64,000 bases of DNA from Cyanidioschyzon merolae. Lineage: Eukaryota. Below, one piece after another: positions 21,186 through 59,533 of this stretch; within the stretch, counting starts at the first letter, position 1, and the number at the start of each line of letters is the position of its first letter. The notes below the pieces were generated by a model. That model saw nothing but the letters and a program-made list of their open reading frames with translations, was not told the origin of the DNA and did not search any database. The stretch lies in NCBI GenBank assembly GCA_000091205.1, contig AP006499.2; one strand, given 5' to 3'. A program made the position numbers and the translations under genes.

Positions 21186-21190
21186 TCAGC

Positions 21191-28765: not shown

Positions 28766-30109
28766 ATAAGTCGTAGGAGAAAGATGCATTCGCAGGAAAA
28801 CCAGCAAACGCTGGTCTTCATAGCGCTTGGAGTAGACCGAAACTTGTGAATATATGCTCCCGCTCGAAACGCGGACCTGGTTCTTTTTTATTTTGGAGTG
28901 GGTGTAGAACCATGTCAAGATAAGAGTATCTGCGATCAAGTCACGCTGGCGCTCGCTCTTCGATATTCGCAGGCGGAGGCCTTGGCGGCTGCTATCAGAA
29001 TGCCATCCATAACCGGGTCGAGCTCCGTTTTCCCTGTTTCCGAGCATTTCCGCCTATTGTAACACTTTAAAGTCAGTTGATCATCTGAGGCACGAGTTGT
29101 CAAACCATTGGTTCAAAGATCAGCCCCGACCGAAGCGGGCCTGCTCAGCATCTCTGGCAGGCTCATAGCCCTTTGGGCGCTCCGGTAGCCGCTCGAGATG
29201 TAGAGATTCAGCACCAAGTCACCGGGACGTCGTTCAGCGCATATTCTGGTGCCCCGAACAGCGGTTTTTGCCGCGTGATATCGCGGAAACGAGGCAAAAC
29301 TTCCCGAATGCGCAAGCGGGAATCGCAACCTGCTAAAGACCGAAGTTACTCACCAGGTGTGATAACATTCCCCGCAAATCCAATATCAAGTTCTATGCTC
29401 GAATAAAGGCCTCATCGATCCAGCAAGCCACCAGAACCGAGCGCTACTGGTGGTGCACCCTGCGACGTCGGATGCGTCGCCGCCGCGGTACCATTACCGA
29501 GATGGAACCGCGTTGCAGTCCGTAATCGGTCATCGGTTCGAGGTCGTCTAGCCAGCGATTGCATAGTGTCTGTTCACGGTTTAGAGTTACGACGATTCGT
29601 TGACGAGGCGCGCAGCCCATGTTGCCGCTTCTGTGCATGCATCGACCCAGCTCAAGATTGACTCCGGGGACACCCTGCATAGACTCGGAAGGCGAAAATT
29701 CATACCTACGCTTTGGAGACGAATGCACAGTCGGAGACAATTCGAGACAGGCACGCGCACTCTCCGCCGCATGAAAGCTACCAAGCGGCTCGCTTGTGTC
29801 CGAGCCTAACGTCGTGCGAGAAGACGGTGCAGTGTACCTGGCCAACACCACGCCATCATTTCAGCTATGGGTAGCTCGCTTTAAATCTGCATGATTTGGG
29901 CATCGTATACGCCACCAGTCTCGAGCAGTACACACCAGGGATGATAGAGCGCCTCATGATCTGACAGAATGATTAGCAACATCGCGGATGCACGCTGCAG
30001 AAGACCATGCGATCGACAGCTGCGAGGCCGTCCTCGGTACGCATCGATTGTGCACCGACACGCTGCCCAGACGCACGGAATCGCGGTAGCCCAGCAACGT
30101 GCATCTTCA

Positions 30110-30801: not shown

Positions 30802-33800
30802 TTGGGCTGCATGGGGCTTCAGCTGGAACACACTGGGAGACGTTTGCGAGGTGACTCAGCACGTCAGTCGAAACGCTCGCGCTCGGAGTCGTCCTCCGGA
30901 ACCGATGCGCTCAGTGAAGCTAGTTCGTGGTTGCGCGATGAGAGCAGCGGGCTCTATCCTGAAGCAGAGGGTGTTCGTCGACAACCGAGGCGCAGTGCGC
31001 GGGCTAGCCGCTCGATGCGTGTTGAGTCTAGCGCTTCGGAGCAGAGTGATGAGGCTCTGTACCTGAGTGATTCGTCGACGAGCTCGCAGTCTTCGACTGG
31101 AGCCGATAGCGAAGCGTGCGTGCCGCGAGCAAAGCGTCGTCGTGAAGCGCGAGGCTCGGAGGCAACCCGCTCCAGCCGAGGGGAGGTTGAAGAGGTTTCC
31201 GATGCACACACTCCGAGAACACCCGGCGATCAGGGTGCTTCGTTGGACTCGTACCCAATGGAGCGCATCCTTGCGCGGCGTGTACGCCATATGACCCTGG
31301 AAGAGGCGGCTGAGATGAACTCGAGTTTGTCACCAGCGTCGAAAGTCTCTGCTGGCGCCGAAGAGCGTTCGCCTGCAGAGGGCTCGGGCGACCGCGGTCG
31401 TCTGCGTACCCCCATGGTAGAGGAGTACCTGATCAAGTTTAGGGGACTCTCCTATATACATTGCCAGTGGGTCCGGGAGGATTTTATTCTGGCGCAGCCC
31501 AGTGGGAAGCAGCGTCTCCAGCGGTTTCTGAGCAAAGAACAACAAGAGGCTGCATACCGAGGTGTCCGAGGTGTCCTGGGATCGGCCTCCGATGCTGAGG
31601 ATCACGATGAGGAGGACGAAGCAATTCCCGAAGACTTCGTCACGGTGGATCGAATCATAGCCGAACACGTGGGCCCCGACGGCACACGGCAGTTCCTCGT
31701 CAAGTGGTGCTCGCTCGGCTACGATGAGTGTACCTGGGAATACGAGCACGAAGTCCAGGACGATCTCAAAATCAAGGAATTTTACGAGCGGAATACGCTG
31801 CCACCGGAAAGCGAGCGAAAACGGCCACCACGGCCAAACCCAGCAAGCTTCGTGAGGCTCTCGAATCCATCCTTTAAAAATGGAGGCGAGCTACGCGAGT
31901 ACCAGCTCGAGGGCCTCAACTGGCTGGTGCATTGCTGGTTCAAACGTCAGGGGTCCATTCTGGCCGATGAAATGGGCCTGGGCAAGACCATTCAAGCTGT
32001 ATCATTCCTAGACTATCTCTACAGGGAACAGCACCTTCGGGGTCCTTTCCTGGTTGTCGCGCCTCTATCCACATTGGGACATTGGAAGCGAGAGTTTGAA
32101 ACCTGGACTCACATGAATGCAATCGTCTTCCACGGCAACGTCAGAGCGCGTGATGTAATTCTGCAGTATGAATGGACCTATGCGGGCATGAGCGTCAGAT
32201 CAGGCCTTTTTAAGTGGCATGTTCTCATTACGACGTATGAGATTATCTTGCAAGAAGCTAATCGCCTGCGGGGAATACCCTGGGCTGTCATCGTCGTGGA
32301 CGAAGCGCACCGACTGAAGAACCGACAGTCCAAGCTGTTCGACGAGCTGCTTGGCTTCCGTTCCGAACATCGGGTACTGCTCACCGGAACGCCGCTCCAG
32401 AACAATTCGCTGGAGCTCTTCTCGCTGCTCCATTTTCTAGAGCCAGCAAAATTCCCGAACGAGAAAGAGTTCCAACAAGCCTACGGAGATATTCGTGACG
32501 CCGAGGCTGTCGAGAACCTGAAAGCGTTACTGCGACCGTATCTCCTGCGCCGGATGAAGGAGGATGTTGAGAAAGCGATACCGCCCAAGGAAGAGACGCT
32601 CATAAGTGTCGAGTTAACTCGAATTCAAAAGCAGTGGTATCGAGCGCTGTACGAGCAGAACTTTGCTTTCCTCGAACAAGGCGGCAAGCGCAATAATGTT
32701 GGTAATCTGCGCAACATTGTGATGGAGCTTCGCAAGTGTTGCAACCATCCGTATCTCATTCGTGGTGTCGAGGAGATCGAAACACAATCACTCGCTGCCT
32801 TAGGTGAAGATGCACTGATGCGACACTTGGTGGAAGCATCTGGGAAGCTGGTGCTTGTCGACAAGTTGCTGCCTGTACTGCGCGAAAAAGGGCATCGCGT
32901 GCTTATCTTCTCGCAAATGATTCGCGTTTTGGATATACTGGAGGACTATCTCCACTGGCGGGGATATAAGTTTGAACGACTGGATGGCCGGGTCCGCGGA
33001 AACGATCGCCAGCAGTCCATTGATCGCTTCCAAAAGGACCCGGAAAATTTCGTGTTCCTGCTCTGCACTCGTGCTGGTGGACAGGGCATCAATCTAACCG
33101 TTGCCGACACTGTGATTATTTTTGATAGTGACTGGAATCCGCAAAATGATGTACAAGCACAGGCGCGCTGTCATCGTATCGGGCAAGAACGCGACGTGAA
33201 AGTATATCGCCTCATTACGCGCGGCACGTACGAGGAAGAGATGTTCGATCGAGCGAGCAAAAAGCTCGGACTCGACCAAGCAGTGCTGCAGAACATGGGT
33301 GTCGACCAGGGCGGCAGCGGCAACATGCTCTCCACCATGGGCCGCGATGATATCAATCGCCTCTTACGACGTGGTGCCTATGATGTATTTAACGAAGACG
33401 ACTCGGCAGCTGACGCATTCACTGCTGAAAATATAGAGAATATCATGGCGCGACGTACCAAGACGATCAAGACTGGTGGCGCAGGCGACGTTGGACCGTC
33501 AGCGTTTTCCAAGGCAACTTTCACGGCGGATGCTGATGGGATGTTTGGCGATGAAACTTGGCTGAATGACAAAGAATTCTGGAAGAAACTGATGCCACTA
33601 GCGGCCTCTGCACCGAACCCCGATATCATCTATGAACCGCGTCGCCGGCGACAAGTTCAGCGCTTCCAGCCGGGCGAAAACTCTGATGAGGAGAGCGGCG
33701 AACACGAGTCCGACAGCGATGAAGCCGACTTGTCCGAGGACAAACTCGGACCCGATGGTCGGAAACTCTGGAACAAGTCCGAGCGACATCGATTTCATCG

Positions 33801-36800
33801 GGCGATGCTCACTTATGGCTACGGAGAGTGGGAACGGATTGCCCAGGCCATGGCCAGGGCCCAAAAAAGTGCCAATCAACGGTCTGTGTTTGAGGTTCAA
33901 CGCGCTGCTCGCAGCTGGTTGCGGCTACTTGCGGAGCACACTGCTGCCGCGCTGGTTGCTGGCGATGCCGCGGATGCCACGCAACAGGAGCGTCTCGCCC
34001 AGGAGCGCCTCGTGAAGCTTTGCAACGAGAAGCGCGTGCTGCAAGCTGCCTTTGAACCCTGGATCGATGAGAACACGCAACAACCTGTCGATGAATCGTT
34101 CACTGAACCAGTCTTCACTGAAGATAGCTACCTCGATGCAATGGAACGGAACGGGTACAACTGGATTGAACGTCTCGAATGCATCGAAGACATCAAAGAT
34201 CTGGTTCGAAACGGTGACGTTGACGGTGAGATTCCCTCGATCACCGCCAGTGGCATCTATGTGATGCCCGACTGGTGGGACGCCGAGTTCGATCGAGCCC
34301 TGATTCTGGGCACCCACAGGCACGGGTACGGCCAGTACGATGATATGAGGCGGGATCCGGATCTGCACTTTTTCGGACGACTGGCGCCTTTGCCGCAGCC
34401 GGAGCCTGGCAATGGGAACGCAGCCGAGGACGGCGACGCGAGGCTCGCCGAATGGACCGCGCTGGACCAAAGCTACCGTGAAAAGGCCGCGTCTTTGGGA
34501 CTCGACGCGGAACAGCTACGAGCACGCGAGATGCCGACCCTACATATACTGAATACGCGACTGAAGAAGCTGCTTAAGGCATTCCAGCGCCTACGACGGC
34601 GACAAGATCGTCGACGGAGCCAACTGGAACAGGCCGAAGAACGTGCGCGTGCTCGTGAGGAGCAACAGTTAGCACGCCGACGACAACGCGAGGCGTTTGA
34701 ACGCGAACGATCGGCTCGCTTTGAGGTTCAGGCACAACGCTGGTCCAAGCGTGAAAAGCACGACTTTGGACGTCTTCTTGGACGTCTCGGCGGCGTGGTC
34801 TATGACGCGGATGGGCGTATTGACTGGTCCGTTTACAAGGAGCGCTGCCAGCTTTCACGCAAGTTCGACTACAACCTCGAGCGCATGTACATTGAGATGT
34901 TGGCCATGGCTCGGGAGAGTTTTCGACGTACCGGTGACGATGCGCTCGCAAAGGCCCTCGATGAACCCATCGAGTATGCGCTGCAGTGGCGGGCCAGTCA
35001 GCATGAGTCGCGCCTCGCGGAGATGCAGCGACTGAGCCGCGAGAGCAGCGACGCTGCCACTCGATTAGCTGCGCTCGAGGAGTGCCTTCGAGCGCCCCAA
35101 CTGGAAGGTTTTCCACCGACTGAACTCGAGGAATTGCGCACCCTGTTTATTCTCTCTCGCCGTTTCGTAGAACGCGTGCGTGTCTTGCACTTTATCCGCG
35201 TCGTCGCTGCACCACTGCTACAAAACCCGGAACTCTGTTCACATCTGATCGAGAACATACCGCCGCCTCGGTCGGACACACTGCCCTCCTGGTGGCGTGT
35301 CGCTGAGGGCCACGACTTGGCGCTCCTGCGCGGCGTCATTCGCTACGGCTTCGACACCGCCCCGCTAGCACTGGACCCGTCGCTCCCGTTTCTGCCGATA
35401 TGCTCGGATTTGGCGCAGCGAGCGAGCACCGCTGAACGTGCCCCCGAAGACGGTGACCTCAGCACCGCAGAAACAGAAACACGATCCACAAACAACGAAA
35501 ACGACATCGTTGCTATGTTTGCCAAACACCGCGGTGTCTTTCTGCGTGCACGCATCGCCGCTGAGGTGCTCGTTTACGGACGTATCGAGCGCGTGCATGC
35601 AAGCGCATCGTCGGGATCCGTGAAGCCCGATGCCCTGCCCCCGCAGGTGCCACCGCTGCCGATGGACACGTCATCGATGATCACGCATGCAGCGGGCACG
35701 CTTGGCAGCTTACGTGTCTATGCGACGGCCTCGGGGGAGCCGATCTCCAGCGAGGGTGGCGATGATTTCGAGCCTGTTCCCCTGGAGCTCGTTACCGTGG
35801 ATATGTTGCAGACATTCAAGCAGTTGAAGAAGCGAGCATCTGGGGTCGTCGATGTATCGAGTTTACCAGAACAAGTAGTGAGCCTTGGTCGCTTGCTCCA
35901 GAGACAAATGATCCGCGAAGAGACCATGTCAGGGAGCACGGGGCTTGAGCACCGATCTTCTGCTCCTGCTGCTGCTGCTGCTGCTGCTGCGTCGCTGGAC
36001 ATGGTGACAGCGTCGGCTGGATCGAGTGGGAAAAACGCCTCGTTGGTGCCGAGCCTCGCCACGGCAACTGCGGAGCGTTGCGGGCATACCGGTGACACGG
36101 AGACGAATCCCGTGCCTGTGGCGACGGGTCAGCGTGCGGTTGTGCCTGCAGCGGCGGCAGCGGGATCGACAGGTCACGGATCGGCGAGTCAGCCGCAGGT
36201 ACGCAGGTCGCAGCTGCACAAAGTCGCTCGCGATGAACACGGGAACGTTCGGTTGCCGATCCAGATCGGGGTGGTCCTACGGATCGAATCCCTCGGGCAC
36301 ATTGATCCACGAGAGAGTTTCCATAACGAGCGAGCGATCTACCCAGTCGGGTATCGATCGGTGCGCACGTACACGAGTTGCGTCGATGTGAATCGCTCAA
36401 CACAGTATGTATCGGAAATTCTGGATCGAGATGGACATCCGTGGTTCCGGGTCACTTGTGCGGACATGCCGGAGGAGCCGTTCGAGGACAAGTCGCCGAG
36501 CGGATGTTGGTCTCAGATCATGCGAATCATTCGAGAGCGAACCCCGTTGGATAGACGACGCGTTCATGCCACGGTTAGCGGTCCAGAGTATTTCGGACTG
36601 ACACAGCCGATCGTCGAAGAGCTTTTGCAGTCCCTTCCAGGGGCCGCACAACTCAAGAACTACAATTTTAAGCGGTTTCTTTCTCCGGAAAAGGCGGAAT
36701 CTGAGGAATCGCTCCATCCCCTGGGCGCAGCGACGGATTCACCGGCAGCGGGTACAGCGCAAGAGCAGTTGCGAGCGGTTGAGCGCGCGAAGACCATGGC

Positions 36801-36855
36801 AGATCCGGTTCGTATCAGACTCTGCCTAGAGCCGATGGAAACAAACCCCGACTGA
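30802..36855 (+). CDS. CHD-type chromatin remodeler: tandem chromodomains, SNF2 ATPase, helicase-C, SANT-like region, C-terminal FYRN/FYRC
   Basis: Chromodomains: [16 protein letters not shown] and [19 protein letters not shown]. SNF2_N: [16 protein letters not shown]...[11 protein letters not shown]...[10 protein letters not shown]. Helicase-C: [30 protein letters not shown]...[21 protein letters not shown]. SANT-like: [24 protein letters not shown]. C-terminal FYRN-like [12 protein letters not shown] and FYRC-like [13 protein letters not shown]...SPSGCWSQI. Single 2017-aa ORF containing a (GCT)n poly-Ala tract. Confidence 0.9.
   Translation: [2017 protein letters not shown]
35959..35990 (+). 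repeat. (GCT)n trinucleotide repeat encoding poly-Ala inside the CHD gene
   Basis: gctgctgctgctgctgctgctgc is translated [12 protein letters not shown] in the CHD ORF. Confidence 0.9.
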
Positions 36856-38154
36856 TGGATGGAGATGAGCGGTTTAGAAGCATCGGATCGCAGAGGATAT
36901 GGTCCGGAATCAGGATTTTGGTTGAGGCTTTGAGCACTGCGCTGCACGAGTACGGTGTTGCGACAAAGCGTGCACCCTCGTGCATAGCGAGCATTCATGA
37001 ATCTCAGGTTGCGGCCGTGTGCATCGCCAGCGTCTTTCGCTCCAGACGCAGACAGGTGGAGCACCACCAGCACCACCGCTACCGCTGCGTGAATCACCAG
37101 CACCGGCACCAGCAGTGCCTGTCATCATGATCGTGAACGAGTTGCAAACCGTGCGGCAATCATGCAGCATGGATACCCATGCGGACAACGCTTTGTTCTG
37201 CGCATGATCGCTCCAAAGTTGCTTTTTATGATGGCGCCCCAGTCGACAAACACAGAAACGCGCACGGCCCAGGTTGTCCATGTCATGCGCAAATCACCCT
37301 GCAAATGGTCTGCGCTTACCTCTTCGTCAGGTCCACGTTCCACGAAACCTTAAACGCTTGCTTTTACGCGCAAGGCATGAGAAACATCAAAATCCGGTTC
37401 GATGGGACGCTTCGGGATCAGGGCAGCATCCAAAGCGTCAACAGCGCCAGTTTCGATCCGATGGAAAGCGTGTTTCCCGAGGAACTTTCACCTGAAGACA
37501 GCCTGTATGAAGCAAAGCGCAAGAAAGGCCGCCAAGTGTTATATTTTCCGGTACAACGATTGAATTTTGCGACGCTATCCTGACTGGTGCTAGTCGTCCG
37601 CTGACCGAGTATTTACGCCATGAACTCCCAAACGATCACGTATGTCTTGAACGCTCACAACGTTGCAGTGGGTTGCAAACTACTGGGAGCCGCCCTGGAA
37701 GCACGCGCCTTTCGTAGACGTCCCGCAGGTCGTTAGAGGTACACAGGAACCGCACGCGGTTGGTGCTGTCCAGCCTGACGGCAAAGAACCCCGGATACCT
37801 GCGGTATTCGTGCGTGATGGGCAACAACGCCACCGTTTCAGGTAAACATGCTCACTCCGGCTGCTCTGCGTGACAGCAGACAGACTCGAAAGAACAGCTC
37901 ACTGCACTGCGGCATCTGACGCCTTACCGGCGCTCGCGGTAACGCGGAGTTTGACAAGTTCGACATAGTGGCGTACTAGAGCATTCAGGCCACAGTCCGC
38001 TTGATTGGAAACTCAACCTTTCCAAGCAAGCGGGACGTTCAACCACCGTATACGAACGAAAAGCGTTTCGAGCCCCAGGTCTGTGGCAGCACGTTGCGGT
38101 TGGTGCAGGTCGGCGTGACCGTCGCCCGTGCCGTCGGAACGCAAAACAGGTGGA

Positions 38155-38197
38155 GCTGCTGCTGCTGCTGCTGCTGCTGCCGCTACTGCTGCCGTTG
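38155..38197. repeat. (GCT)n microsatellite, intergenic
   Basis: gctgctgctgctgctgctgctgccgctactgctgccg. Confidence 0.85.
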
Positions 38198-38545
38198 TCA
38201 GTTCGAAGATGGTGTACGGCACGGCGTGCCGGTGAACGATATAGCCGAGAATTTCCGGGCCTGGCTTCGCTCCCAGAAGCAGGGTGCGAATGCGAAACGT
38301 GGAAGTGTTTCCAGGAGATACTGCGAGATGCTGGCGCTTATGGAGAGATAGAAACAGGGGCTTTCCGGGTCAAAGGGAGCAATCGTTCCGTTTTTGTGCA
38401 TATGGACATGAAGTACGTGCAGGAATACTATTTTCGGAGAGGCTTTTATGACCTGAATAGCAAGGTTTTAAGGGTGGCTGGTCGCTTTTCTTCTGGAAAC
38501 CGCTGCCATGATTCATGGAGACCAAGGGATACCCGACGCTTGAGT

Positions 38546-39927
38546 CGACACCCATGAAGAACGACAATGTCATGGGTGCGCTCCGCGAGCTCGTACGCAC
38601 ACGCTCAAGTTCTGGTCTCTTGCGAATGCGATCAAGTCTCTGGGGTTTATCTCAGCGACTGCTTCCTGTTCCTGCCGCGTACTTCCGGCTTCACAGGCAC
38701 CGTTCTCTTCTGTCGCTCCAGATTCGGTGTCAGCAGTCGAAGGGTGTTGACGGCAGTGTGCGAGTCCCAACTGTTTCTCGGCCTCGGGCTGGTGTCAACG
38801 AATGCAATGCGCACTCGCGGTCGCTGCGATCTACGCATCACTTGCCATGTTCGTCTTCTTATTGTGCAGCCTCAGTGCACGTCCTTCGCAGCAGTAACGC
38901 TTGACTCTGGGCAGGTGTTTCCGTACCGTCCATCGCACCGTTTTCTCCGAGTCCTGCCTTCTGGGTCACCAGCGCTAGTCGCATCGCTCGCTACAAGCGC
39001 TGGACGGGTCCAGGCGGTTACCTCTGATACCAACCTGCATTGGCGCGCCCGCCGCTGCACCCTACGCTCATGAGCTTCACCTAGAGTGACCAGCTCGGCG
39101 AATTCGCTTGCTTCTGCGTACGAAAGCGAATGCATACGCTGTTGCGTTCGGTCAAGGACTGTGGAGCGCGATGTTGTCCATGATGAAACAAGCACCGCAA
39201 GGAATACCCTGCGGGCGAAACGAGTCTACGAATTCTGATCCGTCCACGCGCCTTTCGTGCAACGCGTCGACACCAGCTCGACTGGAAGCGCTCGCTACGA
39301 TGACTCGAGTCCGAGTCCGGGTCCGAGTCCGAGACCCCTCAACAGGTAAACGGAAGCGTCGGGCACCCCCGGGGTCGTATCCCGTGAGCGATACCGTGCT
39401 GCTGTGGAGTCTCGTTGCGTCGATAGCCACGGAGGAAGGATGATTTGTCTTCCAAGCGGAACTCAATATTGGACATGACATCGTCTGCGGGCCGTCGGCA
39501 GGAGCTTGTGATCAAGCCGTCATGGCGTATCGTAGAGTGTTTTGCATCGTTCCTCTGGCGTTGCGGACTGCTGCGCCCACGAGTTGCCATGAAGCAGCTG
39601 AATCGTGAGCTTGAAGCACGCGTGACTGGAGCGTGCGTCTCGTCATGCGAGGTGAAGAGCCGAGGCATGCTCGTTTGAACCGGATAAAGAAATCTGTTAT
39701 TTTGCATACGCTAATTCGAGGAGGTCGCGACTCATCTTGATTCTGGTGTCGCAGCGAATGCAACCGGTTGAGCGTCGACGGAGCCGCACCGGAACGTTCA
39801 CCGAGAATCCTGAAACTACTGGTGAATCTGGAAACCCCTATTGGGTGAATCTGAGTGTCGAGGTTGCAAATCTGGAAAACGGTTGGAAAAAATCGAAAGG
39901 CAGGAGCAGTCGACTAGTGCAGTATTC
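38546..39927 (-). repeat. Family-X repeat, inverted-repeat arm L (~1.38 kb)
   Basis: Reverse complement of 43613-45002. Identical 168-aa and 77-aa ORF artefacts appear on opposite strands in the track (38567..39073+ = 44475..44981-; 39445..39678+ = 43857..44090-). Contains a (GAGTCC)n hexamer repeat at 39306-39333. Confidence 0.9.
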
Positions 39928-41963
39928 TATTTTCGTTGGGCACTGGTTGAGACAGCAGCTGCAAGTTGCGAAAGAATGCGCGGTGCCAGACATCTTGGAA
40001 TGTAGTGAAATCCTCAACAGTAATTGCGGAAGAAGCGCTCTATTGCTTGGATATACACGTGAGTGACGGCCTTGCCGCTCGGGTTCAGGTCGTAGGTCAA
40101 CGGTTGCATACAGTCTCTACAGTGAAGCATTAGAGCAACTTCGCGAAGAGCATTGACGGTGTATGGTTCAGTTTTTTTTTGCGTACAGAGAGGAAATGGA
40201 ATAAAGTTGACAGATATGATATAGCCCGACGCAATATCAATCTGCACGTACTTCGTAACTACGAATTGCGAGTCGAGCAACAAGGCTCGTTTTCAACTGT
40301 TCAACATAGGTGAAGAGCAATGGTTCATTGTGGGTGTGGAAACGGGCTTGAAGAGTATCATGCCCGTTGTTTTGCCTCTGAGTCACGGATACGGGGCCAA
40401 AGGCTTACACTGAACAAGACGAGGTTGCCCAGCTTTGCAGGGCTCTGTACTTTCGAGAGTCGTACATGACACACGGTACGCGACGTACCAACAGGTAACA
40501 GGATACTGTTAGAATAATCTCGATGCTCTGAGCACTGCACCCGGCAGACGAGATGCTTTGTGCGCTTCATTCGAAGGTTGCATCAGCGTCCGAGAATCCT
40601 GATGCAGGCGAACATTGGCAGGATTGCATGAAACCACGCTGGGGGCGCCAACGGTTTCGGTTGTACGGTGGCGAGGACGGTGCATACGTCAACTTCATCA
40701 ATGCGCTGGAGAAGGCGAAGACCGATACGTCGCATCGTTTGGCGGTTGAATTCTGTGGCACTGGACGTGCTGTAGAGCACACACGCTGCACTCCTGCACC
40801 ATCGAAGAGAGTGGACTGCTGGCGGAGGAAGCGATTCGTCACGTTTCCCATCGATTAGTTCAGGACAATATACATGCATCACAAGCACAGGCGTGCGCTC
40901 AGACTGGTCCAGAAGAAGATAGTGAAACAGAGCCGGATACACAAGGTGATGTGCGGTAAGCTAGCCGAACGTCAGATAGCGAGATAATCGAAGTTGTGAG
41001 GTTTGCTGTGGTTTGTTTCCGACCGCATCCATGTGCGCGGAAGCGCCTTCCGCACCGAGCCTTGAACGCCTCGTTCAACAAGCGGAAATATCCTGTACTT
41101 TCGGATCGTCCAGCGCTGCTCTGTCGAGCGAATATTCGAGTGAACCGTTTAGAACTCAGTGTGAGCATTGTGCTCAAACGCTGACGACTTCCAATGAAAA
41201 ACATAGCAAACGCCAAGAGGGAGGGCATCGCATTCCTGCCTCGAACAAGGCACTGGGATGGTACGGGAACGCGATCCGGCATGGCTTCAGTGCCTTACGT
41301 ATACATAGGGAGAGAGTTTCTCGGGCTTTTGTTCGACGATACTGGTATTCTATTATCCGACGTTACTGGGCAAGTCCAAATTCAAAATGCAACATTTCAT
41401 GGCAACGCTACAGCACGTGCCAGCGTCAGATCAACAGCGAATCGCCTCGGCAACGGAGACCAACCCCTGGGTAGTTGTATCATAAGCGCAAACGCTCCTC
41501 GCTAACGTACAGTGCCGAGAGCAGGTACTAGGATTCACCCATTGTGGTAGATCATCTCCCTTGGACTCCAAATTCGCGATACCGGAACCCATTGCATACG
41601 TACGTGCAGAAAAAGCAGATGATTTCCCTAGCACCAGGACATTTTTTCATGATTCATATATTCCAATATGCGACCTTTCTGCGGCACAGCGGAAAGTAGC
41701 TCAAGTTTCTCGCTCTTGTGAGAACGCAGTAAAGCTGATCGGTATGTAATGCGATTTTTTGCAATCCTGTAAATCGACCAAGAACTTGGGGTTGTCTTCC
41801 ATCGCAACGGTTGGCACCCTGTGCGAGAAACGATGCCGCCGCCTCCGTCGACGTCACTGGAATGCAACCTCGGGTCTTCAAACGTGCGTTTCGGGTCGCC
41901 AAACGCGAAGCCGTGTTCACAAAGACTACCAAGGCACTCGAACATCAGTGCAGCATCCGCGAA

Positions 41964-43310
41964 TCACTGTGCGTCGCGTCTTTCAAAGGCCGCTATGAAA
42001 TACGCAGAACGTGACGAGAAACCTGTAACGGGAGCTGTGGCTATTTCTGCAGTGCTTGCGCCTATCCTTGGACCAGAGACTCCAAGCGGGGTTCGTGTCT
42101 GCGCTGCCTGCGCGGGAATACGAACCGCTGCAGAGCAGCCAGCCAAACCACGATGCGGCCACGCGGGGAAGACAGTGTCCAAGCGCCAACGACTTGCGAT
42201 GAACGGATCGGCGAGCAGCGCCTCGACAACTTTTTCGTTTTCCTCAATCAGTACGCTACACGTGGAGTAGACAACCCGCCGGACTCGAGGAAAAGCCACC
42301 AGCGCATGCCGAAGTAGCTGAATCTGAACGGCAGCCAGTCGACCGATTCTGGACCAGTTATAGCGCTCCCCGACGGGCCGGTAACGCACTAAACCAGACC
42401 CTGAGCACGACGGATCGACTAGGATCGCTGACGCTTGCGCAAGAGCGCCATCATGAGCATCATCGGATACCACTGTTCGAAAGTCCTTCAGATGCATGCG
42501 AATGCTCTGGGTGAATCCTGCGCTGCGAACACGCGATACCATCGCCCGATAACGTTCGGCATCTCTTTCGAATGCATAAACCATGCCACTCTGTTGCAGC
42601 AGATTGGCAAGAAACATGCTTTTATTCCCAGGTGCTGCACATGCATCGATAAGGTGCCAGCCGCGTTGTGGTTGGAGCGCGAGCGCAGCCAGGCACGAAC
42701 CTCTGTCCTGCACGATGAGTAGCCCGCGCTGCACCCACTCATGGCTGAGGAATGCCCCTAGGTCTCCATGGAAACACCAGAAGAGGTCCGGGTATGCAAG
42801 ATCGCGTTCAACGCATCCAGGGAAGGCGCGTTCGACTGCCGCAGGATCCAAACCGCCAAGGACTTGCGGTCGAAACCAGAAAAAGCGATAATCCTCTGTT
42901 TGTTGAAAAGATGGCGGCTCATCGGTGTTCGTCCTGGACCCGCCACAGGACGTTGTTGATGCGCTGAGCAATTTTTTGAGCTTACGAGCGATGAACCCTC
43001 CAGCGCGAAGCAAGTTACCGCGGCCAAAACAGCGTTCGTAGACCACAACTCGAGCTAGCCAGTGGTTCGTGGGACGTCTCAACCAGTCGTGCCACCAGCG
43101 CCGTTCATCTTTTGGTTGCTGCTGGATCGCACTCTGCAGTATCCGCTCGAGTTCGTGGCTCCAGCGGTGTGTCTCGGTTGCCAAGGCGTACACGCGTGGC
43201 CACTCGGTACCCAGACGCGTTCGTTCGCGGTACAGAAACGTGCGCAGCGAAGCGGATGACGTTTCCGTCAGCGTTAAAACCTGCGCAACGCTTCTATAGA
43301 CGGGGTGCAT
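41964..43310 (-). CDS. NOL1/NOP2/Sun-family RNA cytosine-C5 methyltransferase (NSUN5/Rcm1-like size)
   Basis: SAM-binding motif I (LIDACAAPGNKS), catalytic motif IV (ILVDPSCSGSG, cf. DAPCSGTG) and motif VI (VYSTCSV) are present. The gene lies in the spacer between the inverted family-X arms. Confidence 0.8.
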   Translation of the reverse strand: MHPVYRSVAQVLTLTETSSASLRTFLYRERTRLGTEWPRVYALATETHRWSHELERILQSAIQQQPKDERRWWHDWLRRPTNHWLARVVVYERCFGRGNLLRAGGFIARKLKKLLSASTTSCGGSRTNTDEPPSFQQTEDYRFFWFRPQVLGGLDPAAVERAFPGCVERDLAYPDLFWCFHGDLGAFLSHEWVQRGLLIVQDRGSCLAALALQPQRGWHLIDACAAPGNKSMFLANLLQQSGMVYAFERDAERYRAMVSRVRSAGFTQSIRMHLKDFRTVVSDDAHDGALAQASAILVDPSCSGSGLVRYRPVGERYNWSRIGRLAAVQIQLLRHALVAFPRVRRVVYSTCSVLIEENEKVVEALLADPFIASRWRLDTVFPAWPHRGLAGCSAAVRIPAQAAQTRTPLGVSGPRIGASTAEIATAPVTGFSSRSAYFIAAFERRDAQ

Positions 43311-43612
43311 GAACCGTTCATCACTCGGGTAAGTGTAGTGACTGCCCCCAGGCGGTGCTCAACGTGCCCGACTCGACTCGCACACTAGACAAGTTTTGCA
43401 CCCGCGGCGCGCTGCAGACAGCGGGCTTGTGTACTCGGCACACTGCGGATACCCGAGTGGAAAAGGAAGATGCTCGACAGAACACTCCTATCAGAGAGCG
43501 ATTGGGTTGTAGGATTGCTTTGTCGGTGTAGCGGTCGACGAGGAAGATAATGCAAATAGGTACGGATATGCCACTGCGCGATGCTACACTAGTGTCAGAT
43601 CAACATGGAATA

Positions 43613-45002
43613 CTACACTAGTCGACTGCTCCTGCCTTTCGATTTTTTCCAACCGTTTTCCAGATTTGCAACCTCGACGTTCAGATTCAACCAATAGGGG
43701 TTTCCAGATTCACCAGTAGTTTCAGGATTCTCGGTGAACGTTCCGGTGCGGCTCCGTCGACGCTCAACCGGTTGCATTCGCTGCGACACCAGAATCAAGA
43801 TGAGTCGCGACCTCCTCGAATTAGCGTATGCAAAATAACAGATTTCTTTATCCGGTTCAAACGAGCATGCCTCGGCTCTTCACCTCGCATGACGAGACGC
43901 ACGCTCCAGTCACGCGTGCTTCAAGCTCACGATTCAGCTGCTTCATGGCAACTCGTGGGCGCAGCAGTCCGCAACGCCAGAGGAACGATGCAAAACACTC
44001 TACGATACGCCATGACGGCTTGATCACAAGCTCCTGCCGACGGCCCGCAGACGATGTCATGTCCAATATTGAGTTCCGCTTGGAAGACAAATCATCCTTC
44101 CTCCGTGGCTATCGACGCAACGAGACTCCACAGCAGCACGGTTTCGCTCACGGGATACGACCCCGGGGGTGCCCGACGCTTCCGTTTACCTGTTGAGGGG
44201 TCTCGGACTCGGTCTCGGTCTCGGACTCGGTCTCGGACTCGAGTCATCGTAGCGAGCGCTTCCAGTCGAGCTGGTGTCGACGCGTTGCACGAAAGGCGCG
44301 TGGACGGATCAGAATTCGTAGACTCGTTTCGCCCGCAGGGTATTCCTTGCGGTGCTTGTTTCATCATGGACAACATCGCGCTCCACAAGTCCTTGACCGA
44401 ACGCAACAGCGTATGCATTCGCTTTCGTACGCAGAAGCAAGCGAATTCGCCGAGCTGGTCACTCTAGGTGAAGCTCATGAGCGTAGGGTGCAGCGGCGGG
44501 CGCGCCAATGCAGGTTGGTATCAGAGGTCACCGCCTGGACCCGTCCAGCGCTTGTAGCGAGCGATGCGACTAGCGCTGGTGACCCAGAAGGCAGGACTCG
44601 GAGAAAACGGTGCGATGGACGGTACGGAAACACCTGCCCAGAGTCAAGCGTTACTGCTGCGAAGGACGTGCACTGAGGCTGCACAATAAGAAGACGAACA
44701 TGGCAAGTGATGCGTAGATCGCAGCGACCGCGAGTGCGCATTGCATTCGTTGACACCAGCCCGAGGCCGAGAAACAGTTGGGACTCGCACACTGCCGTCA
44801 ACACCCTTCGACTGCTGACACCGAATCTGGAGCGACAGAAGAGAACGGTGCCTGTGAAGCCGGAAGTACGCGGCAGGAACAGGAAGCAGTCGCTGAGATA
44901 AACCCCAGAGACTTGATCGCATTCGCAAGAGACCAGAACTTGAGCGTGTGCGTACGAGCTCGCGGAGCGCACCCATGACATTGTCGTTCTTCATGGGTGT
45001 CG
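43613..45002 (+). repeat. Family-X repeat, inverted-repeat arm R (~1.39 kb)
   Basis: Partner of 38546-39927. Carries the family core 'gaagacgaacatggcaagtgatgcgtagatcgcagcgaccg...cccttcgactgctgacaccgaatctggag' at 44694-44850 and an expanded (GAGACC/GAGTCC)n at 44199-44250. Confidence 0.9.
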
Positions 45003-45159
45003 ACAATCGTTGTTTCGATAATCATGTACAAATTGTATACTTAGCCCGATAATATCCCATTTATGTCCATCACCATCTCGATGACGCACTGTCGTCTCTA
45101 CCGGAATCCAATCCGTGTTGACACGACGTTTGTGAACACCCCCGGTTCCTTCCTGAAGC

Positions 45160-46617
45160 ATGCAAAACCGCAGCGATGTTTCACAGATCCCCGAAGACAG
45201 GCGCGTGCGTTATGTCGTTCAGAAGCAGACCGAAATTTTCGATGGAAAGCGCCTCCGTCGGGCGATGGTTCGGAAGACAGTGGACTTGCAGGCGCCTGCA
45301 GCTCGCTGGTTGCTGGACCGTACCTGGCAGCAAGACAGTCGTCAGGGACCGCCGCTGGAGCCCTCAGCTGAATACATCTATCGGCTGCAACCACCCTGTG
45401 CTGCGGCGTTTCGAGAACGGCCGATAACCAACGCCTGTACGCACTTTGTGCAGCACGCGCAGAACAAGCAAAAGTGCGGGATAAACGCCTGCTGCTGGAC
45501 GCCGGAAGGCCGTCGACTCATCACGGGCGCTACGAGCGGCGAGTTTACACTCTGGAATGGTTGGACTTTTAACTTTGAGACGATACTATTGGCCCATAAT
45601 CTGGCGGTGCGCAATATTACCTGGAGCCATGACGGCAAGTTCATGGTCTCAACCGACCAGTCTGGCATTGTAAAGTACTGGCAGAGCAACCTCAACCATC
45701 TGAAGGTATTTCGAGCGCATCAAGAGACAATACGGGACTTGGCCATAGCCCCAACGGATCAGAAACTAGCGACTTGTTCGGACGACCAGACGATCCGGGT
45801 GTTCGACTTTGAGTCGCCCGCTCGAGCGGGTGAGATCCAGGGCTCCCCCGAGCGCATCCTGCGCGGACACGGCTGGGATGTGCGCTCTGTGGACTGGCAC
45901 CCAACGCGCGGCCTCCTTGCGTCTGGTAGCAAGGACTCTCTGATCAAATTGTGGGACCCCAAATCAGGCAAGTGCCTAACGACGATCCATGCGCATAAGA
46001 ATGCAGTTGTGAAAGTGCGGTGGAACCCCAGCAATGCGAATTACCTGCTGAGCGGCTCGCGTGACCAAACCGTCAAGTTGATCGATATTCGGATGATGCG
46101 ATCTGTGCAGAGTTTTCATGGACATCGTCGCGAGGTAACGACGCTGGCCTGGCATCCCATCCAGGAGGATACTTTCGTGTCGGCTGGCTACGACGGTTCG
46201 CTGTTCTTCTGGGTGCTTGGCGATCCTGAGCCGGCGGCAGTCATCCCGAACGCCCATGCGACCCAGGTTTGGGACCTCTCTTGGCATCCGTTGGGGCACG
46301 TGCTCGTAAGCTCCGGCAACGATACGTACACCCGGTTCTGGACTCGGTCGCGGCCAGGAGACGGCATGCGCGATCGCTACCAGCGCAGCAGTTGTCGCTG
46401 GGAGCACGTCAAGCTGTACGCGACTGAAGATGATCCGCTTGTGCGCGAGGTTGAAGAGCTTGAAGCCCTTCAAGGCAACGGCGGGGTCGATGGCTTCGGG
46501 GAATCTCTCCTCGACCGACACGTTATGATGGTGAAGCGCCAGCGGACGACTGCTGCTCAGCGACCTCCTCCAGGTCTGGAATACGTCCAGAATGACGTGC
46601 AGATGACCAAGAGTTGA
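45160..46617 (+). CDS. WDR33: WD40-repeat protein, WDR33/Pfs2/FY-like (cleavage and polyadenylation specificity factor subunit)
   Basis: Seven WD repeats with Pfs2/WDR33-type blocks: RRAMVRKTVD, ITWSHDGKFMVSTDQSGIVKYWQSN, GHGWDVRSVDWHP, LIKLWDPKSG, HKNAVVKVRWNPSNANYLLSGSRDQTVKL, SFHGHRREVTTLAWHP, LVSSGNDTYTRFWTRSRPGD. Confidence 0.8.
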   Translation: MQNRSDVSQIPEDRRVRYVVQKQTEIFDGKRLRRAMVRKTVDLQAPAARWLLDRTWQQDSRQGPPLEPSAEYIYRLQPPCAAAFRERPITNACTHFVQHAQNKQKCGINACCWTPEGRRLITGATSGEFTLWNGWTFNFETILLAHNLAVRNITWSHDGKFMVSTDQSGIVKYWQSNLNHLKVFRAHQETIRDLAIAPTDQKLATCSDDQTIRVFDFESPARAGEIQGSPERILRGHGWDVRSVDWHPTRGLLASGSKDSLIKLWDPKSGKCLTTIHAHKNAVVKVRWNPSNANYLLSGSRDQTVKLIDIRMMRSVQSFHGHRREVTTLAWHPIQEDTFVSAGYDGSLFFWVLGDPEPAAVIPNAHATQVWDLSWHPLGHVLVSSGNDTYTRFWTRSRPGDGMRDRYQRSSCRWEHVKLYATEDDPLVREVEELEALQGNGGVDGFGESLLDRHVMMVKRQRTTAAQRPPPGLEYVQNDVQMTKS

Positions 46618-47299
46618 CAAGATTCGACGTCGATGCGGGGTCGCGCCTTATGCCGTCGGCGTTTGGGAGCGATAACCATTCCGATTCCTCGGAAGAAGTT
46701 CTGAAATCACGGAGTCAAGCAGGCAAGTGCCGGTGTCTCAGATGCAGGTCCAGCAATACTGCAACCGATACGAGTGTGCCCAGGGATTCGATGCCCGATG
46801 GGAGTCAGCAACGCTGCGCTCTGTGTGTGAAGCCTTCCGCCTCGTGCGACATCGGGCGGGCACATTCTGGTATTTCGCTGGATACCAGGGATACGATTCA
46901 TCTTGTACTCGCCTTTGCCGATGAGGCTCAACCCGGAGGTTCCACCACGAGTCGTTTTTCGATAAAGCACGGAGCCTGCGAAAGCAACACATAACCAGTG
47001 AGGCAGGGAACATCACTGGTGGTGCCGCGTACGCGGTTGGTGACTGTGTCACTGTCGCTTCTCTGCCTATGTCGTTTTCTGACAGAGATTATCCGTCCCC
47101 TGTTTCGTATCTCACCAGGTTTTTCATTAGCAAAATCGCTTGGAGCTTCCAGCAGAGTCGGTAGTACTGATCAAATTCCATGGTGGAGTGCTCTGGCTCT
47201 GATACGTGGAAGCGTCGATGACAGCCGGCTGGTAGGCAGTAGATGCTGCAAACGTTCTGATCCGGTGTAAGGAAACGTAGATGCTCACATTCAGGCACG

Positions 47300-48770
47300 A
47301 AGCATAAATTGTAAAACCAGATGATCTGATATATACGGCCAGAAAAGACAAAAAAACATTTCACGACCACGGAGGGTATGTATATGTACCCAGGCGCAGG
47401 CGCCTGCCAGTCTTTTTTGGCCGTCCGCCTGCTATCGGGTTCAGCTTCACCCTGTACACGTCGAGCCGGAGAGGCTGCCTTATAAACTTGGATCGCGTCA
47501 GCTCCGCGGATCTCGTCTTCAGCACCGCTCATCGTCTGATATTAACAGCAGCGTTGTGATCCCGGTTCACGAACTTGTTGCATGCAGTGCTGGTAGTGGG
47601 GAACACCAATGCAGGGATTGCCGGAACTTGCGCCCTCCGTGGTAATACATTCTCGACATCGTCCCGTCGAGCGAGTACCTTTTCTCGTGTATCTCCACTG
47701 TTCTTCTTCATCACTTGCTCTTCTTCGCATGGTGGTCTTAGAGAAGAGTATTTTTTCGTTTTTTTTTCGCTGCAGGCGACGATAATCGCCCTCCAGGATT
47801 CTCGACTTCCATGTCCATAACTTTCCCGTAGATTTTTTATTTCTTCATATGAACGCACTTCTTGATGCTCTTAGACAAGGGCCATCGCGGAGTGAGAAGG
47901 ACCTGCGCAAGAAAGAAGAATTGTGCCCGTGGGCTAAACGTACGGAGAACGCTTCGGCAATTCGCCCAGTGGAGCGATCATGACGTTCCACCCTGGAAAG
48001 TACTCCTTTGATGGTGCTTAACCACCGAGCGTACGTAGGAATGAGAAGCAGCTCTATCCCGGTAGAACTGGCATAAAGATCGAATGCAAATGAATGGTGA
48101 AATGCCACGTTGTCGAACAGAAGAATGTCGGCGGAGCTGCAAGGGAAAAGTCTTCAATGATTCAACAAATTGGGTGCTTTTGTTGCAAGAGCCTTCTCAA
48201 CGAGCGAAACCGTGGCCGGCAAATGAATCCTCTGCAACTAGAAGCTGAAATGATGATATGATCTTTCTCTTGCATGTCTTTTCTAATTACAACGAGCGCC
48301 CTGCTCGGCGAATACCCATATACGCTCCGACCGTTTCGTCTGAAGGACTTTTCAACGATTGAAAAAAACAAACCGATGTCTCTGTGATGCATACCGACCG
48401 CAGCGTTCCAGGAACGCTATCGTTGCGTGAACTAGGACGCTCGTTTTGGCGACTGTATTCCAGGGCTTTCAACGCGACACGAACAAGCTGTTGAGAAACA
48501 GCGACACCCGCGATGGCTACGATCGTCGCTTTTGCTTTTCATACGGCAATCAACGAGTCGCTCTCTACCATGGACTGCAAGAACGCTTCGACAATACCAG
48601 TTTTTGGCGCGGAACGCATCTACTTGTTTCTTTCACTGTTCCTCAACCATCTGAGTACAGTTGGATGACTGAACTGAATGAGGAATACAGTCCTCCTTGT
48701 ACTGTTCAGTACATAATATATATCCTACAGACGATTCGTCTACGATCTAACCAGTACATTGCGTCGTGAT
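47300..48770 (-). mobile_element. Degenerate TnpB/Fanzor-like element, copy B (~1.45 kb; best-preserved C-terminus)
   Basis: Minus ORF 47529..47858 ends ...KKYSSLRPPCEEEQ...FPTTSTACNKFVNRDHNAAVNIRR. ISDra2-type TnpB has ...YPSSKTCSSCGH...CEACGFVLDRDLNAAINI, i.e. a CxxC zinc finger plus RuvC-III. The body at 47830-48770 aligns with copies A and C. A conserved tail lies at 47300-47530. Confidence 0.6.
47529..47858 (-). pseudogene. TnpB/Fanzor-like nuclease C-terminal fragment (zinc finger plus RuvC-III); upstream body is frameshifted
   Basis: CNKFVNRDHNAAVNIRR terminates the ORF. Upstream minus ORFs 47845..48108 and 48162..48392 are in other frames, and the shared peptide block RxTGRI(A/G)EAFS also occurs in copy A. 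Confidence 0.6.
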
Positions 48771-48993
48771 TTCAGTGCCCCGCTTACTGAACGCGGCATC
48801 GAGCGTGGAACGAATCCTAGTTGAAGGACTTTGAGGAAACCTCAATGCTCGTGTGCCCGCGGGCCGCCGAGCGACACGACCGGGATGCGCGCACGCGCCT
48901 GCGCCACCGGGGCATCGTGCAACGTCCCCCGGAGGCCTGACGGGGTGAAAGCGCCTCACTGGCGAATCGGAGCGCTGTAGTGCGGCTTAGGCT

Positions 48994-59290: not shown

Positions 59291-59533
59291 ACTTTTAAAA
59301 CCGGATATGAAACGAGGGAAATGGGATGCATTCGCCGACCAGACCCACAAAGGCGGAAACTCATGGCCAAGGGAAAGACACCCAACCTTTTGAGTCTGCC
59401 CCCGATTCGGCTGCGTGTACCCGTTCGATACGATGTTCACATGGTTGTTGCAGTGCAAGCACCTTGTCCAGCAAGTCCAGCCTTCAAGCTCACGCTCCGT
59501 TTTCTCGTGTAAAAGAGGCACGCTTGTTCATAC

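Follow-up and report, generated by a model that had tools for sequence, protein, structure and literature searches.

In the genome of the red alga Cyanidioschyzon merolae 10D, the gene for an NSUN5/NOL1-like RNA cytosine methyltransferase on chromosome 17 is enclosed by two inverted and nearly identical copies of a dispersed intergenic element. The 64,000-nucleotide stretch of the chromosome that was analysed is referred to here as the window, and the two element copies as the arms. The arms are probably old copies that have been homogenised by sequence exchange, and a crossover between them probably inverted the segment that carries NSUN5. The mechanism that we favour starts from two old, inverted copies of a non-coding element dispersed in the C. 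merolae lineage, one in each of the intergenic regions that flank the gene. As the arms are only 3.7 kb apart, the homologous-recombination machinery may repeatedly repair or convert one from the other; such concerted evolution would keep about 1384 nt of both copies ~99% identical, and an exchange resolved as a crossover would invert the 3.7-kb segment between them. This would have occurred at least once, because NSUN5 in 10D is opposite to its ancestral orientation. We infer that the crossover took place between arms that already existed and that the inversion may recur. Since the arms provide identical sequence over at least 1.4 kb on both sides, a flip would spare the gene and its proximal upstream region and is probably neutral. 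The locus adds one more case to a familiar class, the real but unexceptional inversions that repeats bring about.

Architecture of the inverted repeat

Gapped blastn joins the arms in a single alignment of 38544–39927 with 45004–43608 that has 1377/1397 identities and 13 gap columns, in agreement with the sequence-only reading, which had described two inverted arms of >98% identity. The intervals given there for the arms, 38546–39927 and 43613–45002, were approximately right but were off by 2–5 nt. A repeat search returned the arms as three collinear inverted blocks, which the gapped alignment merges (Table 1). The arms differ by 7–8 substitutions, a 1-nt indel and a 12-nt length change in a hexamer microsatellite; the right arm is 13 nt longer than the left owing to the microsatellite expansion and the indel. 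The short form of the microsatellite is present in 16/16 full-length arm copies from Yellowstone strains, which are ~99% identical to 10D (99.0–99.8%) and were assembled independently. Beyond the aligned block, the inner termini of the two copies match at 12 of 20 positions, which has a chance probability of about 0.002, and this diverged 20-nt stretch marks the edge of the homogenised tract.

Table 1. Features of the NSUN5 inverted repeat and its surroundings (window coordinates)
Feature	Position	Strand	Remarks
Left arm	38544–39927	+	~99%-identical block of full-length ~1.35-kb dispersed element copy; non-coding
Right arm	43608–45004	-	Second full-length element copy, inverted orientation
Inverted block 1	38544–39160 / 44388–45004		617 nt, 100%
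Inverted block 2	39160–39336 / 44211–44387
Inverted block 3	39306–39947 / 43588–44229
Hexamer microsatellite (CGAGTC)n, left arm	39306–39333	+	Main arm-to-arm length difference
Same hexamer microsatellite, right arm	44199–44241	-	12 nt longer in 10D
Left copy, diverged inner terminus	39928–39947	+	12/20 identical to right copy; family consensus still recognisable
Right copy, diverged inner terminus	43588–43607	-	Fits family consensus CAYnTkrA-TCkGACrC
Unique spacer (invertible segment)	39928–43607		3680 nt; recovered as exact contig in L003–L006
Non-coding part of spacer	39948–41963		GC about 50.7%
NSUN5/NOL1-like RNA cytosine-C5 methyltransferase gene	41964–43310	-	448 aa, BAM82110.1
CHD-type chromatin remodeller gene, left flank	30802–36855	+	Syntenic anchor
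WD40 polyadenylation factor Pfs2 gene, right flank	45160–46617	+	BAM82111.1; syntenic anchor
Non-arm element copies (nhmmer)	8–1116, 17657–18940, 24440–25503, 27751–28911, 58102–59449

The spacer and its gene also stand as first described, as a 3.7-kb interval with a NOL1/NOP2/Sun methyltransferase gene. The enclosed gene product is identical to C. merolae BAM82110.1, annotated as 'probable tRNA/rRNA cytosine-C5-methylase NOL1'; it matches the Pfam family Methyltr_RsmB-F at 1.6e-24 and NSUN5_N weakly, and is the only Pfam-supported gene inside the segment. The non-coding part of the spacer holds fragments of another dispersed repeat (40626–40891 and 41034–41266, matching 5105–5367 and 4125–4356), and the poly(A) site of an NSUN5-sense transcript lies there at 41131. 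On the right, Pfs2 starts 155 nt past the outer end of the arm.

Inverted repeats around a core are the geometry both of a programmed invertible switch, here for NSUN5 or its neighbours, and of a centromere-like core of the fission-yeast type, and the 2-kb non-coding part of the spacer is lower in GC than the window mean (50.7% versus 54.9%). A functional module of either sort is nevertheless highly improbable. Pfam detected no recombinase, invertase or integrase in the segment or beside it, the neighbours being CHD and Pfs2; the arms are unexceptional members of a dispersed repeat family, and for about 1.7 kb upstream NSUN5 has the same surroundings in both orientations. Equally GC-poor 2-kb stretches occur elsewhere in the window, at 46801–48800 (49.7%) and 6201–8200 (49.8%), and the centromere idea was set aside on the ground that the GC dip of the spacer is not unique within the 64 kb. 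The published C. merolae centromeres, 2–3 kb long with a GC content of about 48.4%, show no pattern except low GC (bioRxiv 10.1101/096016, summarising the published description), which likewise speaks against such a module.

The arms as copies of a dispersed element

A search with nhmmer located seven copies of a ~1.35-kb intergenic element within the window, both arms included. The five non-arm copies are 65–75% identical to the arms, and the two best of them cover arm positions 4–1396 and 53–1388. The family consensus begins at arm position ~5 and extends ~20 nt beyond the high-identity block. Judged by these alignments, each arm is a complete copy of the dispersed element, which the sequence-only reading had missed.

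The arms are apparently transcribed, as they are covered by contigs from RNA-type libraries. Structured RNA or rRNA in the arms was considered and rejected: at the gathering threshold Rfam found nothing over the whole window except one tRNA at 21101–21185, and at E<=1 it found no RNA family in the arm region in a search of 37000–45200. A protein-coding role for the arms was also rejected, no Pfam domain being reproducible. Each arm contains a 168-aa ORF (38567–39073 on the plus strand and 44475–44981 on the minus strand) and a 77-aa ORF (39445–39678, plus, and 43857–44090, minus), and the translations of each pair are identical. Neither ORF has a Pfam match, and the frame of the 168-aa ORF apparently differs from that in which the family copies resemble the arm, as judged by eye from the translations. 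The ORFs are best treated as artefacts, as had been proposed for the identical ORFs on opposite strands.

The sequence GTCGAC, noted earlier near the arm ends, does occur at the outer ends (38544–38549 and 44999–45004) and 13 nt from the inner ends (39909–39914 and 43621–43626). Each arm has four occurrences, whereas the density of the motif across the window predicts about 0.8. In the family alignment it is absent from the corresponding positions of the other element copies, so its presence at the arm ends is taken to be incidental; a role as a recombination site was rejected, for despite its enrichment in the arms the motif shows no conservation across the family.

A single event of intramolecular replicative or alternative transposition could have produced the second copy and the inversion in one step, with later homogenisation by gene conversion. 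Intramolecular replicative transposition of bacterial IS and Tn3 elements yields inverted copies that flank an inverted segment, a product of just this form, and in 10D the arms are complete element copies in both of the intergenic gaps that bear the breakpoints. This route is unlikely, however. Comparison of the sequences at the four arm junctions disclosed no target-site duplication, whether direct or inverted, no terminal inverted repeats are visible in the end alignments of the element copies, and no transposase was found. A Pfam scan of ten ORFs and three full frames from the element gave only a sub-threshold match to DDE_3 in an arm ORF (E=0.021, 15 bits against the Pfam cutoff of 28.6), which was not reproduced in whole-frame translations or in the other element copies. 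A profile of the best-conserved frame matched just four unannotated metagenome ORFs in a search of 5.8 billion proteins.

Sequence exchange between the arms

Comparison with the Yellowstone strains supports the view that the arms are kept ~99% alike by sequence exchange rather than by a recent duplication. At arm positions 132 and 667 the two 10D arms share alleles that differ from 16/16 Yellowstone arm copies; they are also alike at positions 188, 543 and 685, where they differ from 15/16, and at position 550, where they differ from 14/16. Between the two 10D arms there are 8 differing sites, compared with 12–18 between the 10D arms and most Yellowstone arms; the arm of contig L026 is an exception, with as few as 6 differences. 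Polymorphisms at arm positions 143, 188 and 191 occur on both sides, in arms joined to the left flank as well as in those joined to the right. Within the terminus of the element itself, about 20 nt before its end, identity drops from >99% to 12/20. Strain-specific alleles shared by both arms, polymorphisms that cross between arms and this cliff in identity are the pattern of arms that evolve in concert.

High arm identity and sharp outer boundaries could also be produced by a recent inverted segmental duplication, in which ~99% identity would reflect young age with no ongoing exchange. This is improbable on several counts. The same repeat boundaries are found in 10D and in Yellowstone strains that differ from it by about 0.6–1.1%, and yet the 10D arms are closer to one another than to most Yellowstone arms and share alleles absent from all 16 Yellowstone copies. 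The arm boundaries are the ends of a dispersed element, which is not expected of a random segmental duplication, and the final ~20 nt look old while the remainder is >99% identical. The near-identity had at first been ascribed to recent duplication or ongoing gene conversion; conversion is upheld by the alleles shared between arms and the identity cliff, and recent duplication is not.

The inner edge of the arms bears on inversion as well as on conversion. The GT/AC alleles at arm positions 1312–1313, 72 nt from the spacer, are associated with opposite spacer ends in 10D and in the Yellowstone contigs L031, L033 and L034. These swapped alleles could also be explained by conversion together with allelic recombination in diploid wild populations, with no inversion involved.

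Orientation of the NSUN5 segment and its significance

The orthologous locus was compared in Cyanidiococcus yangmingshanensis (L024) and in a second related lineage (L020–L022). In both, CHD, NSUN5, Pfs2, PreP and HSP90 lie on one strand, so that NSUN5 is co-directional with CHD and Pfs2, and NSUN5 is the one gene that is reversed against the window, all others being collinear with it. On either side of NSUN5 the intergenic gaps measure only about 0.8 and 1.1 kb in these lineages, and neither lineage has a homologue of the arms or any inverted repeat around the gene. In 10D the breakpoints must fall within two intergenic gaps, and each of these gaps holds one arm; as both related lineages lack the arms, the breakpoints are placed to these two arm-bearing intergenic regions and not to the nucleotide. 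The gene lies between CHD and Pfs2 in all three, with no sign of transposon-like movement. This comparison supports an NSUN5 orientation in 10D, as given by the reference assembly, that is opposite to the ancestral one, and it lends weight to the earlier suggestion that such a structure is able to invert the gene inside it.

Independent Yellowstone assemblies show the repeat too, so that it is no artefact of one assembly, the outcome that would have undone the original description. These assemblies are either interrupted precisely at the edges of the arms or include the two arms together: four contigs from independent metagenome assemblies (L003–L006) correspond to 39928–43607 to the base, and both inverted arms are found in single contigs in L016, L031, L033 and L034 by alignment and in L067 by its gene calls. 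All contigs of either arrangement are apparently short-read assemblies, which cannot phase arms of 1.4 kb. Ten contigs are flipped, running from the left flank through an arm to the NSUN5 end of the spacer, and four of DNA-derived or unknown source are reference-like. The flipped contigs come from apparent metatranscriptome libraries, as is shown for one, L014, an 11.7-kb RNA contig with a non-templated poly(A) tail that reads CHD, arm, NSUN5.

Should the repeat be real but the spacer mis-oriented in the 10D reference, there would have been no evolutionary inversion. Short sequences cannot read the orientation of a spacer between 1.4-kb near-identical arms, and the other orientation is seen in the ten apparently RNA-derived contigs and in both related lineages. 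We nevertheless consider such an error improbable. The 10D genome is a finished, clone-based, '100%-complete' Sanger assembly (PMC1955436), and the RNA contigs follow expression-weighted graph paths that do not constitute evidence of adjacency. The reference orientation is also that of the DNA contigs L009, L016 and L026, which may nevertheless have taken an arbitrary route through the repeat.

It is conceivable, though doubtful, that the segment is actively flip-flopping, with both orientations present in wild diploid Yellowstone populations and one of them perhaps rare in clonal 10D cultures; flipped NSUN5 would be co-directional with CHD, and read-through might change its expression. As either arrangement is an equally valid graph path for a short-read assembler, the contigs, with the poly(A) tail of L014 and the unphaseable arms of a short-read project, were rejected as proof of polymorphism, of coexisting isomers or of present-day flipping. 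The search for the reciprocal junction, in which an arm would connect the right flank with the non-coding spacer end, found no such contig; the right-flank contigs end 65–872 nt into the arm.

An inversion through pre-existing, homogenised arms, the reading we prefer, has its closest parallel in the human FLNA-EMD inversion at Xq28, which like other polymorphic inversions flanked by inverted repeats arises by non-allelic homologous recombination (PMC3961182; bioRxiv 10.1101/2020.04.20.051185). Both loci have long inverted repeats of >98% identity around a small unique segment with one or more housekeeping genes, a segment that is oppositely oriented in related genomes, arms that evolve in concert by gene conversion, and no gene broken by the inversion; for C. 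merolae the likeness does not extend to segregating isomers or recurrence. The C. merolae arms are shorter (1.4 kb against at least 11 kb) and are copies of a dispersed element instead of a locus-specific segmental duplication. In plastid genomes the large inverted repeat mediates flip-flop isomerisation, and the two isomers are present together at equal abundance. There too, homologous recombination inverts a single-copy region, and the arms are held identical by copy correction, but the plastid genome is organellar and multicopy whereas the present locus is a single nuclear site. The Hin, Gin, Cin, Fim and 2-micron FLP systems share with it a DNA segment that is bounded by inverted repeats and can invert; they rely on short specific sites and on a dedicated recombinase whose gene lies close by, in place of which the C. 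merolae locus has 1.4-kb generic arms and no recombinase.

The arm element may be set beside the 'novel interspersed repetitive element' of C. merolae, which has 253 copies of mean length 3.2 kb with a truncated ORF weakly resembling WSV486 of WSSV (Nozaki 2007; PMC1955436). The two are alike in being lineage-specific, dispersed, intergenic and apparently transcribed. The arm element, compared here by description, is shorter at ~1.35 kb, and its seven copies in 64 kb represent a much higher density than is expected from 253 copies in 16.5 Mb.

Whole-genome dot plots of 10D against the Yellowstone strain MS1 revealed rearrangements on chromosomes 3 and 19 only (PMC13353863). A 5-kb inversion of the present kind is probably invisible at that scale, and every short-read assembly examined breaks at the locus or takes a path through it that reads cannot verify. 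The 10D genome is a reference for hot-spring metagenomics and is put forward as the free-living eukaryotic genome that is simplest and has been sequenced most completely, with very few repeats. C. merolae also has efficient homologous recombination and simple genetics. If the flip still occurs, simple PCR at the locus would serve to assay ectopic recombination in an alga that is amenable to genetics, and true flip-flopping would make the locus a natural reporter of the rates of mitotic and meiotic inversion and gene conversion between short dispersed repeats; if it no longer occurs, the locus is an ordinary repeat-mediated micro-inversion. The dispersed intergenic repeats of C. merolae would in any event not be inert: they appear to exchange sequence and to have given at least one conserved housekeeping gene an orientation different from that in the sister lineages.

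The inverted repeat and its element family

Exact protein matches (BAM82110.1, BAM82111.1 and BAM82113.1) assign the window to C. merolae strain 10D, and the locus is on chromosome 17. The NSUN5-like gene of this locus is enclosed by two inverted arms. A repeat search of the window recovered three collinear inverted blocks (38544-39947 against 43588-45004), and a single gapped blastn alignment pairs the left arm with the right, read from 45004 to 43608, at 1377 of 1397 identities with 13 gap columns, leaving 3680 nt of unique spacer. The arms differ by seven or eight substitutions, one 1-nt indel and the length of a hexamer microsatellite, and their outermost 617 nt are 100% alike. The sequence-only reading had described such a repeat bracketing an NSUN-type methyltransferase gene and carrying ORFs of 168 and 77 aa that recur identically on the opposite strand; this description is correct, with arm coordinates off by a few bases, the two translations match exactly and the enclosed ORF is of the RsmB/F type. 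Each arm has, right at its outer terminus (38549-38578 and 44970-44999), a 9-bp stem (CACCCATGA / TCATGGGTG) closing a 12-nt loop, and terminus alignments indicate that it is not conserved in other copies of the family.

Features of the locus and related repeats (window coordinates)
Feature	Position	Strand	Remarks
CHD remodeller	30802-36855	+
Left arm	38544-39927
Spacer	39928-43607		begins with 2 kb non-coding DNA
NSUN5-like RsmB/F-type methyltransferase	41964-43310	-	448 aa; BAM82110.1 ('NOL1' methylase); 0.3 kb from right arm
Right arm	43608-45004		0.16 kb from Pfs2
Pfs2	45160-46617	+	BAM82111.1
PreP, then HSP90	after Pfs2		HSP90, BAM82113.1
Hexamer microsatellite	39306-39333 (left arm); 44199-44241 (right arm)		12-nt length difference
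Further element copies	8-1116; 17657-18940; 24440-25503; 27751-28911; 58102-59449
Asp/Asn beta-hydroxylase gene	25861-26853		PF05118
Element end to start codon	25590-25861; 45004-45160; 59449-59534		hydroxylase; Pfs2; 338-aa ORF at 59534
Second dispersed repeat family	4519-5015; 14184-15380; 47353-48825; 56476-57870		68-74% identity
tRNA	21100-21187	+	Rfam 60.9 bits; sole tRNA in the window

The possibility of an assembly artefact, also raised by that reading, was checked against independent Yellowstone hot-spring contigs (L-numbers) that are 99.0-99.8% identical to the window. Four of these (L003-L006) consist of exactly the spacer, many contigs of the right flank, some as long as 28 kb and 100 kb, end 65-206 nt into the arm, and inverted arm sequence occurs at both ends of single contigs (L016, L031, L033 and L034 by alignment, L067 by gene calls). 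The inverted repeat is real outside the reference, since these contigs behave as expected for a true one.

Sensitive DNA searches found five further copies of the arm sequence in the 64 kb, with 65-75% identity to the arms, the two best spanning arm positions 4-1396 and 53-1388. The family consensus starts (ACACCCATG) at arm position ~5 in the terminus alignments and runs on ~20 nt past the spacer-side limit of high identity, so that each arm amounts to one complete copy of a dispersed intergenic element of ~1.35 kb. A locus-specific duplication as the nature of the arms is ruled out by the five other copies. No target-site duplication was seen at the arm junctions, alignments of the element ends show no apparent terminal inverted repeat and Rfam returned no known RNA in the arms. 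No coding capacity was detected: Pfam gave only a sub-threshold DDE_3 match (PF13358; E = 0.021, 15 bits) in the arm ORF 39152-39481 (-), which was not reproduced and is absent from whole-frame translations and from other copies, and an element profile compared with 5.8 billion proteins matched four anonymous ORFs and nothing else. The frame of this ORF can be aligned with other family copies free of frameshifts (~40% amino-acid identity); the DDE_3 signal may be a trace of transposase origin, or noise. GTCGAC motifs, proposed earlier as marking the arm ends, are present and somewhat enriched (four per arm), but are missing at the equivalent positions of other copies and are therefore incidental. 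An interspersed element of 3.2 kb with 253 copies has been described in C. merolae (Nozaki et al.; PMC1955436), to which the present family may or may not belong.

In three of the seven element copies, a start codon follows 85-270 nt downstream of the outer end, and Pfs2 RNA contigs start 65-872 nt within the right arm. Promoter or 5'-UTR sequence might come from the element; alternatively, the arrangement may reflect mere tight intergenic spacing. A copy of the second dispersed family within 4125-5367 separates two segments that neighbour each other in the spacer (41034-41266 and 40626-40891), which looks like a nested insertion.

Sequence exchange between the arms

Recent duplication and ongoing gene conversion had both been offered by the sequence-only reading for the near identity of the arms; four observations favour ongoing exchange, as judged from allele distribution and identity. 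The alleles at arm positions 132 and 667 are common to both 10D arms and differ from those of 16/16 full-length Yellowstone copies, as do positions 188, 543 and 685 from 15/16 and position 550 from 14/16; eight sites distinguish the two 10D arms, whereas most Yellowstone arms differ from them at 12-18 (the exception, L026, is only six sites from the 10D left arm), a divergence between 10D and Yellowstone arms similar to that of the unique flanks. Polymorphisms at 143, 188 and 191 are common to left-flank-linked and right-flank-linked arms. The terminal ~20 nt of the element (39928-39947 against 43607-43588) are identical at 12 of 20 positions (P about 0.002 by chance) and fit the family consensus, and all sequence internal to them is >99% identical; a newly made copy should be equally alike up to its last base, so this drop short of the element end fits a conversion tract needing flanking homology. 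A GT/AC pair at positions 1312-1313 is separated from the spacer by 72 nt, a distance that one read covers. In L031, L033 and L034, the allele that adjoins the non-coding spacer end in 10D is found at the NSUN5 end, with the other allele reversed, and such a swap requires that the arms have exchanged sequence reciprocally or repeatedly. A recent duplication of the arm is disfavoured by the strain-specific alleles in both 10D arms and by the divergent terminus, and the structure is a genuine inverted repeat of two dispersed element copies homogenised by gene conversion.

Another pair of near-identical copies of the arm element (24439-25433 and 27756-28745; 98.2% over 995 nt) is in direct orientation, has the same internal deletion in both copies and flanks the Asp/Asn beta-hydroxylase gene, which it could delete or duplicate. 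This pair suggests that homogenisation of neighbouring element copies is general here.

Orientation of the NSUN5 segment

In Cyanidiococcus yangmingshanensis (GCA_013995675), CHD, NSUN5, Pfs2, PreP and HSP90 are all on the same strand, and a second lineage at a similar distance (L020-L022; ~75-78% DNA identity) shares this arrangement. The gaps around NSUN5 in these lineages measure only some 0.8 and 1.1 kb and contain neither an inverted repeat nor an arm homologue. Every gene of the window is collinear with them but NSUN5, which is reversed; the comparison of the orthologous locus, suggested from the sequence alone, thus gave the opposite orientation in both lineages. The segment with the NSUN5-like gene appears inverted relative to its sister lineages, and by parsimony the 10D arrangement would be a derived inversion of the arm-to-arm segment only, given a correct reference orientation, which derives from a finished clone-based assembly (PMC1955436). 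Conserved synteny around NSUN5 contradicts a composite or foldback transposon carrying the gene, and a one-step origin of the second copy and the inversion by intramolecular transposition keeps a low probability but has no positive support. The second lineage is cyanidiophycean (JGI 3300039285, 3300051397 and 3300061725; contigs of 47-686 kb) and shares, across the syntenic block, about 78% identity with Cyanidiococcus yangmingshanensis and about 76% with C. merolae.

All arm-crossing contigs were classified by junction. Ten (L014, L015, L017, L027-L030, L032, L037 and L038) have the flipped, ancestral-like arrangement, in which left flank, arm and NSUN5 end of the spacer are joined, and four (L009/L025, L016, L018 and L026) have that of the reference; no contig among those searched had the reciprocal junction, which would run from the right flank through an arm to the non-coding end of the spacer. 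The flipped contigs are of the Ga0506/Ga0556 series, and the Lemonade Creek project comprises 12 short-read metagenomes and many metatranscriptomes (PMC11662350). At the end of L014 (11675-11683), nine non-templated A residues follow window position 41131, so its library is RNA-derived; the project description and contig naming suggest that the other libraries of the series are RNA-derived too. In a de Bruijn graph, the spacer can validly be traversed in either orientation, and RNA coverage skews the choice of the branch that is kept. The flipped and reference contigs are therefore uninformative on adjacency, and the earlier proposal that the enclosed gene can flip holds for the reversal against two related lineages but draws nothing from short-read contigs on present-day isomers. 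A telomere-to-telomere comparison of 10D with Yellowstone MS1, which found rearrangements on chromosomes 3 and 19 only, at dot-plot scale (PMC13353863), is silent on a 5-kb flip. A programmed switch is not supported, as a gene and Pfam survey of the window revealed no recombinase in or beside the segment.

The end of L014 places a poly(A) site of the NSUN5-sense transcript at 41131 (minus strand), 833 nt downstream of the stop codon. A Pfs2 contig (L048) likewise has a run of A residues, possibly templated, at its downstream end. ARAGORN reads the tRNA of the window as an 88-nt 'tRNA-Stop' with anticodon TTA; it is probably an intron-containing tRNA, misread by the program. Unusual tRNA genes are a known trait of C. 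merolae.

In the almost intron-free C. merolae genome, long intergenic stretches without ORFs are normal. A centromere-like core between the arms would accord with the GC content of the non-coding part of the spacer (50.7%), low GC and no other pattern being what has been described for C. merolae centromeres, as summarised in a preprint (bioRxiv 10.1101/096016), but the window has two further stretches of 2 kb with GC equally low or lower, and this reading is not supported.

The closest likeness to the derived inversion is found in human inversions flanked by inverted repeats, such as FLNA-EMD, and the mechanism would be the familiar repeat-mediated (NAHR-type) one. The locus would be a new instance of a known inversion type, its main practical value lying in the caution that it brings to short-read assemblies and in its potential as an assay of recombination in an alga that is tractable.
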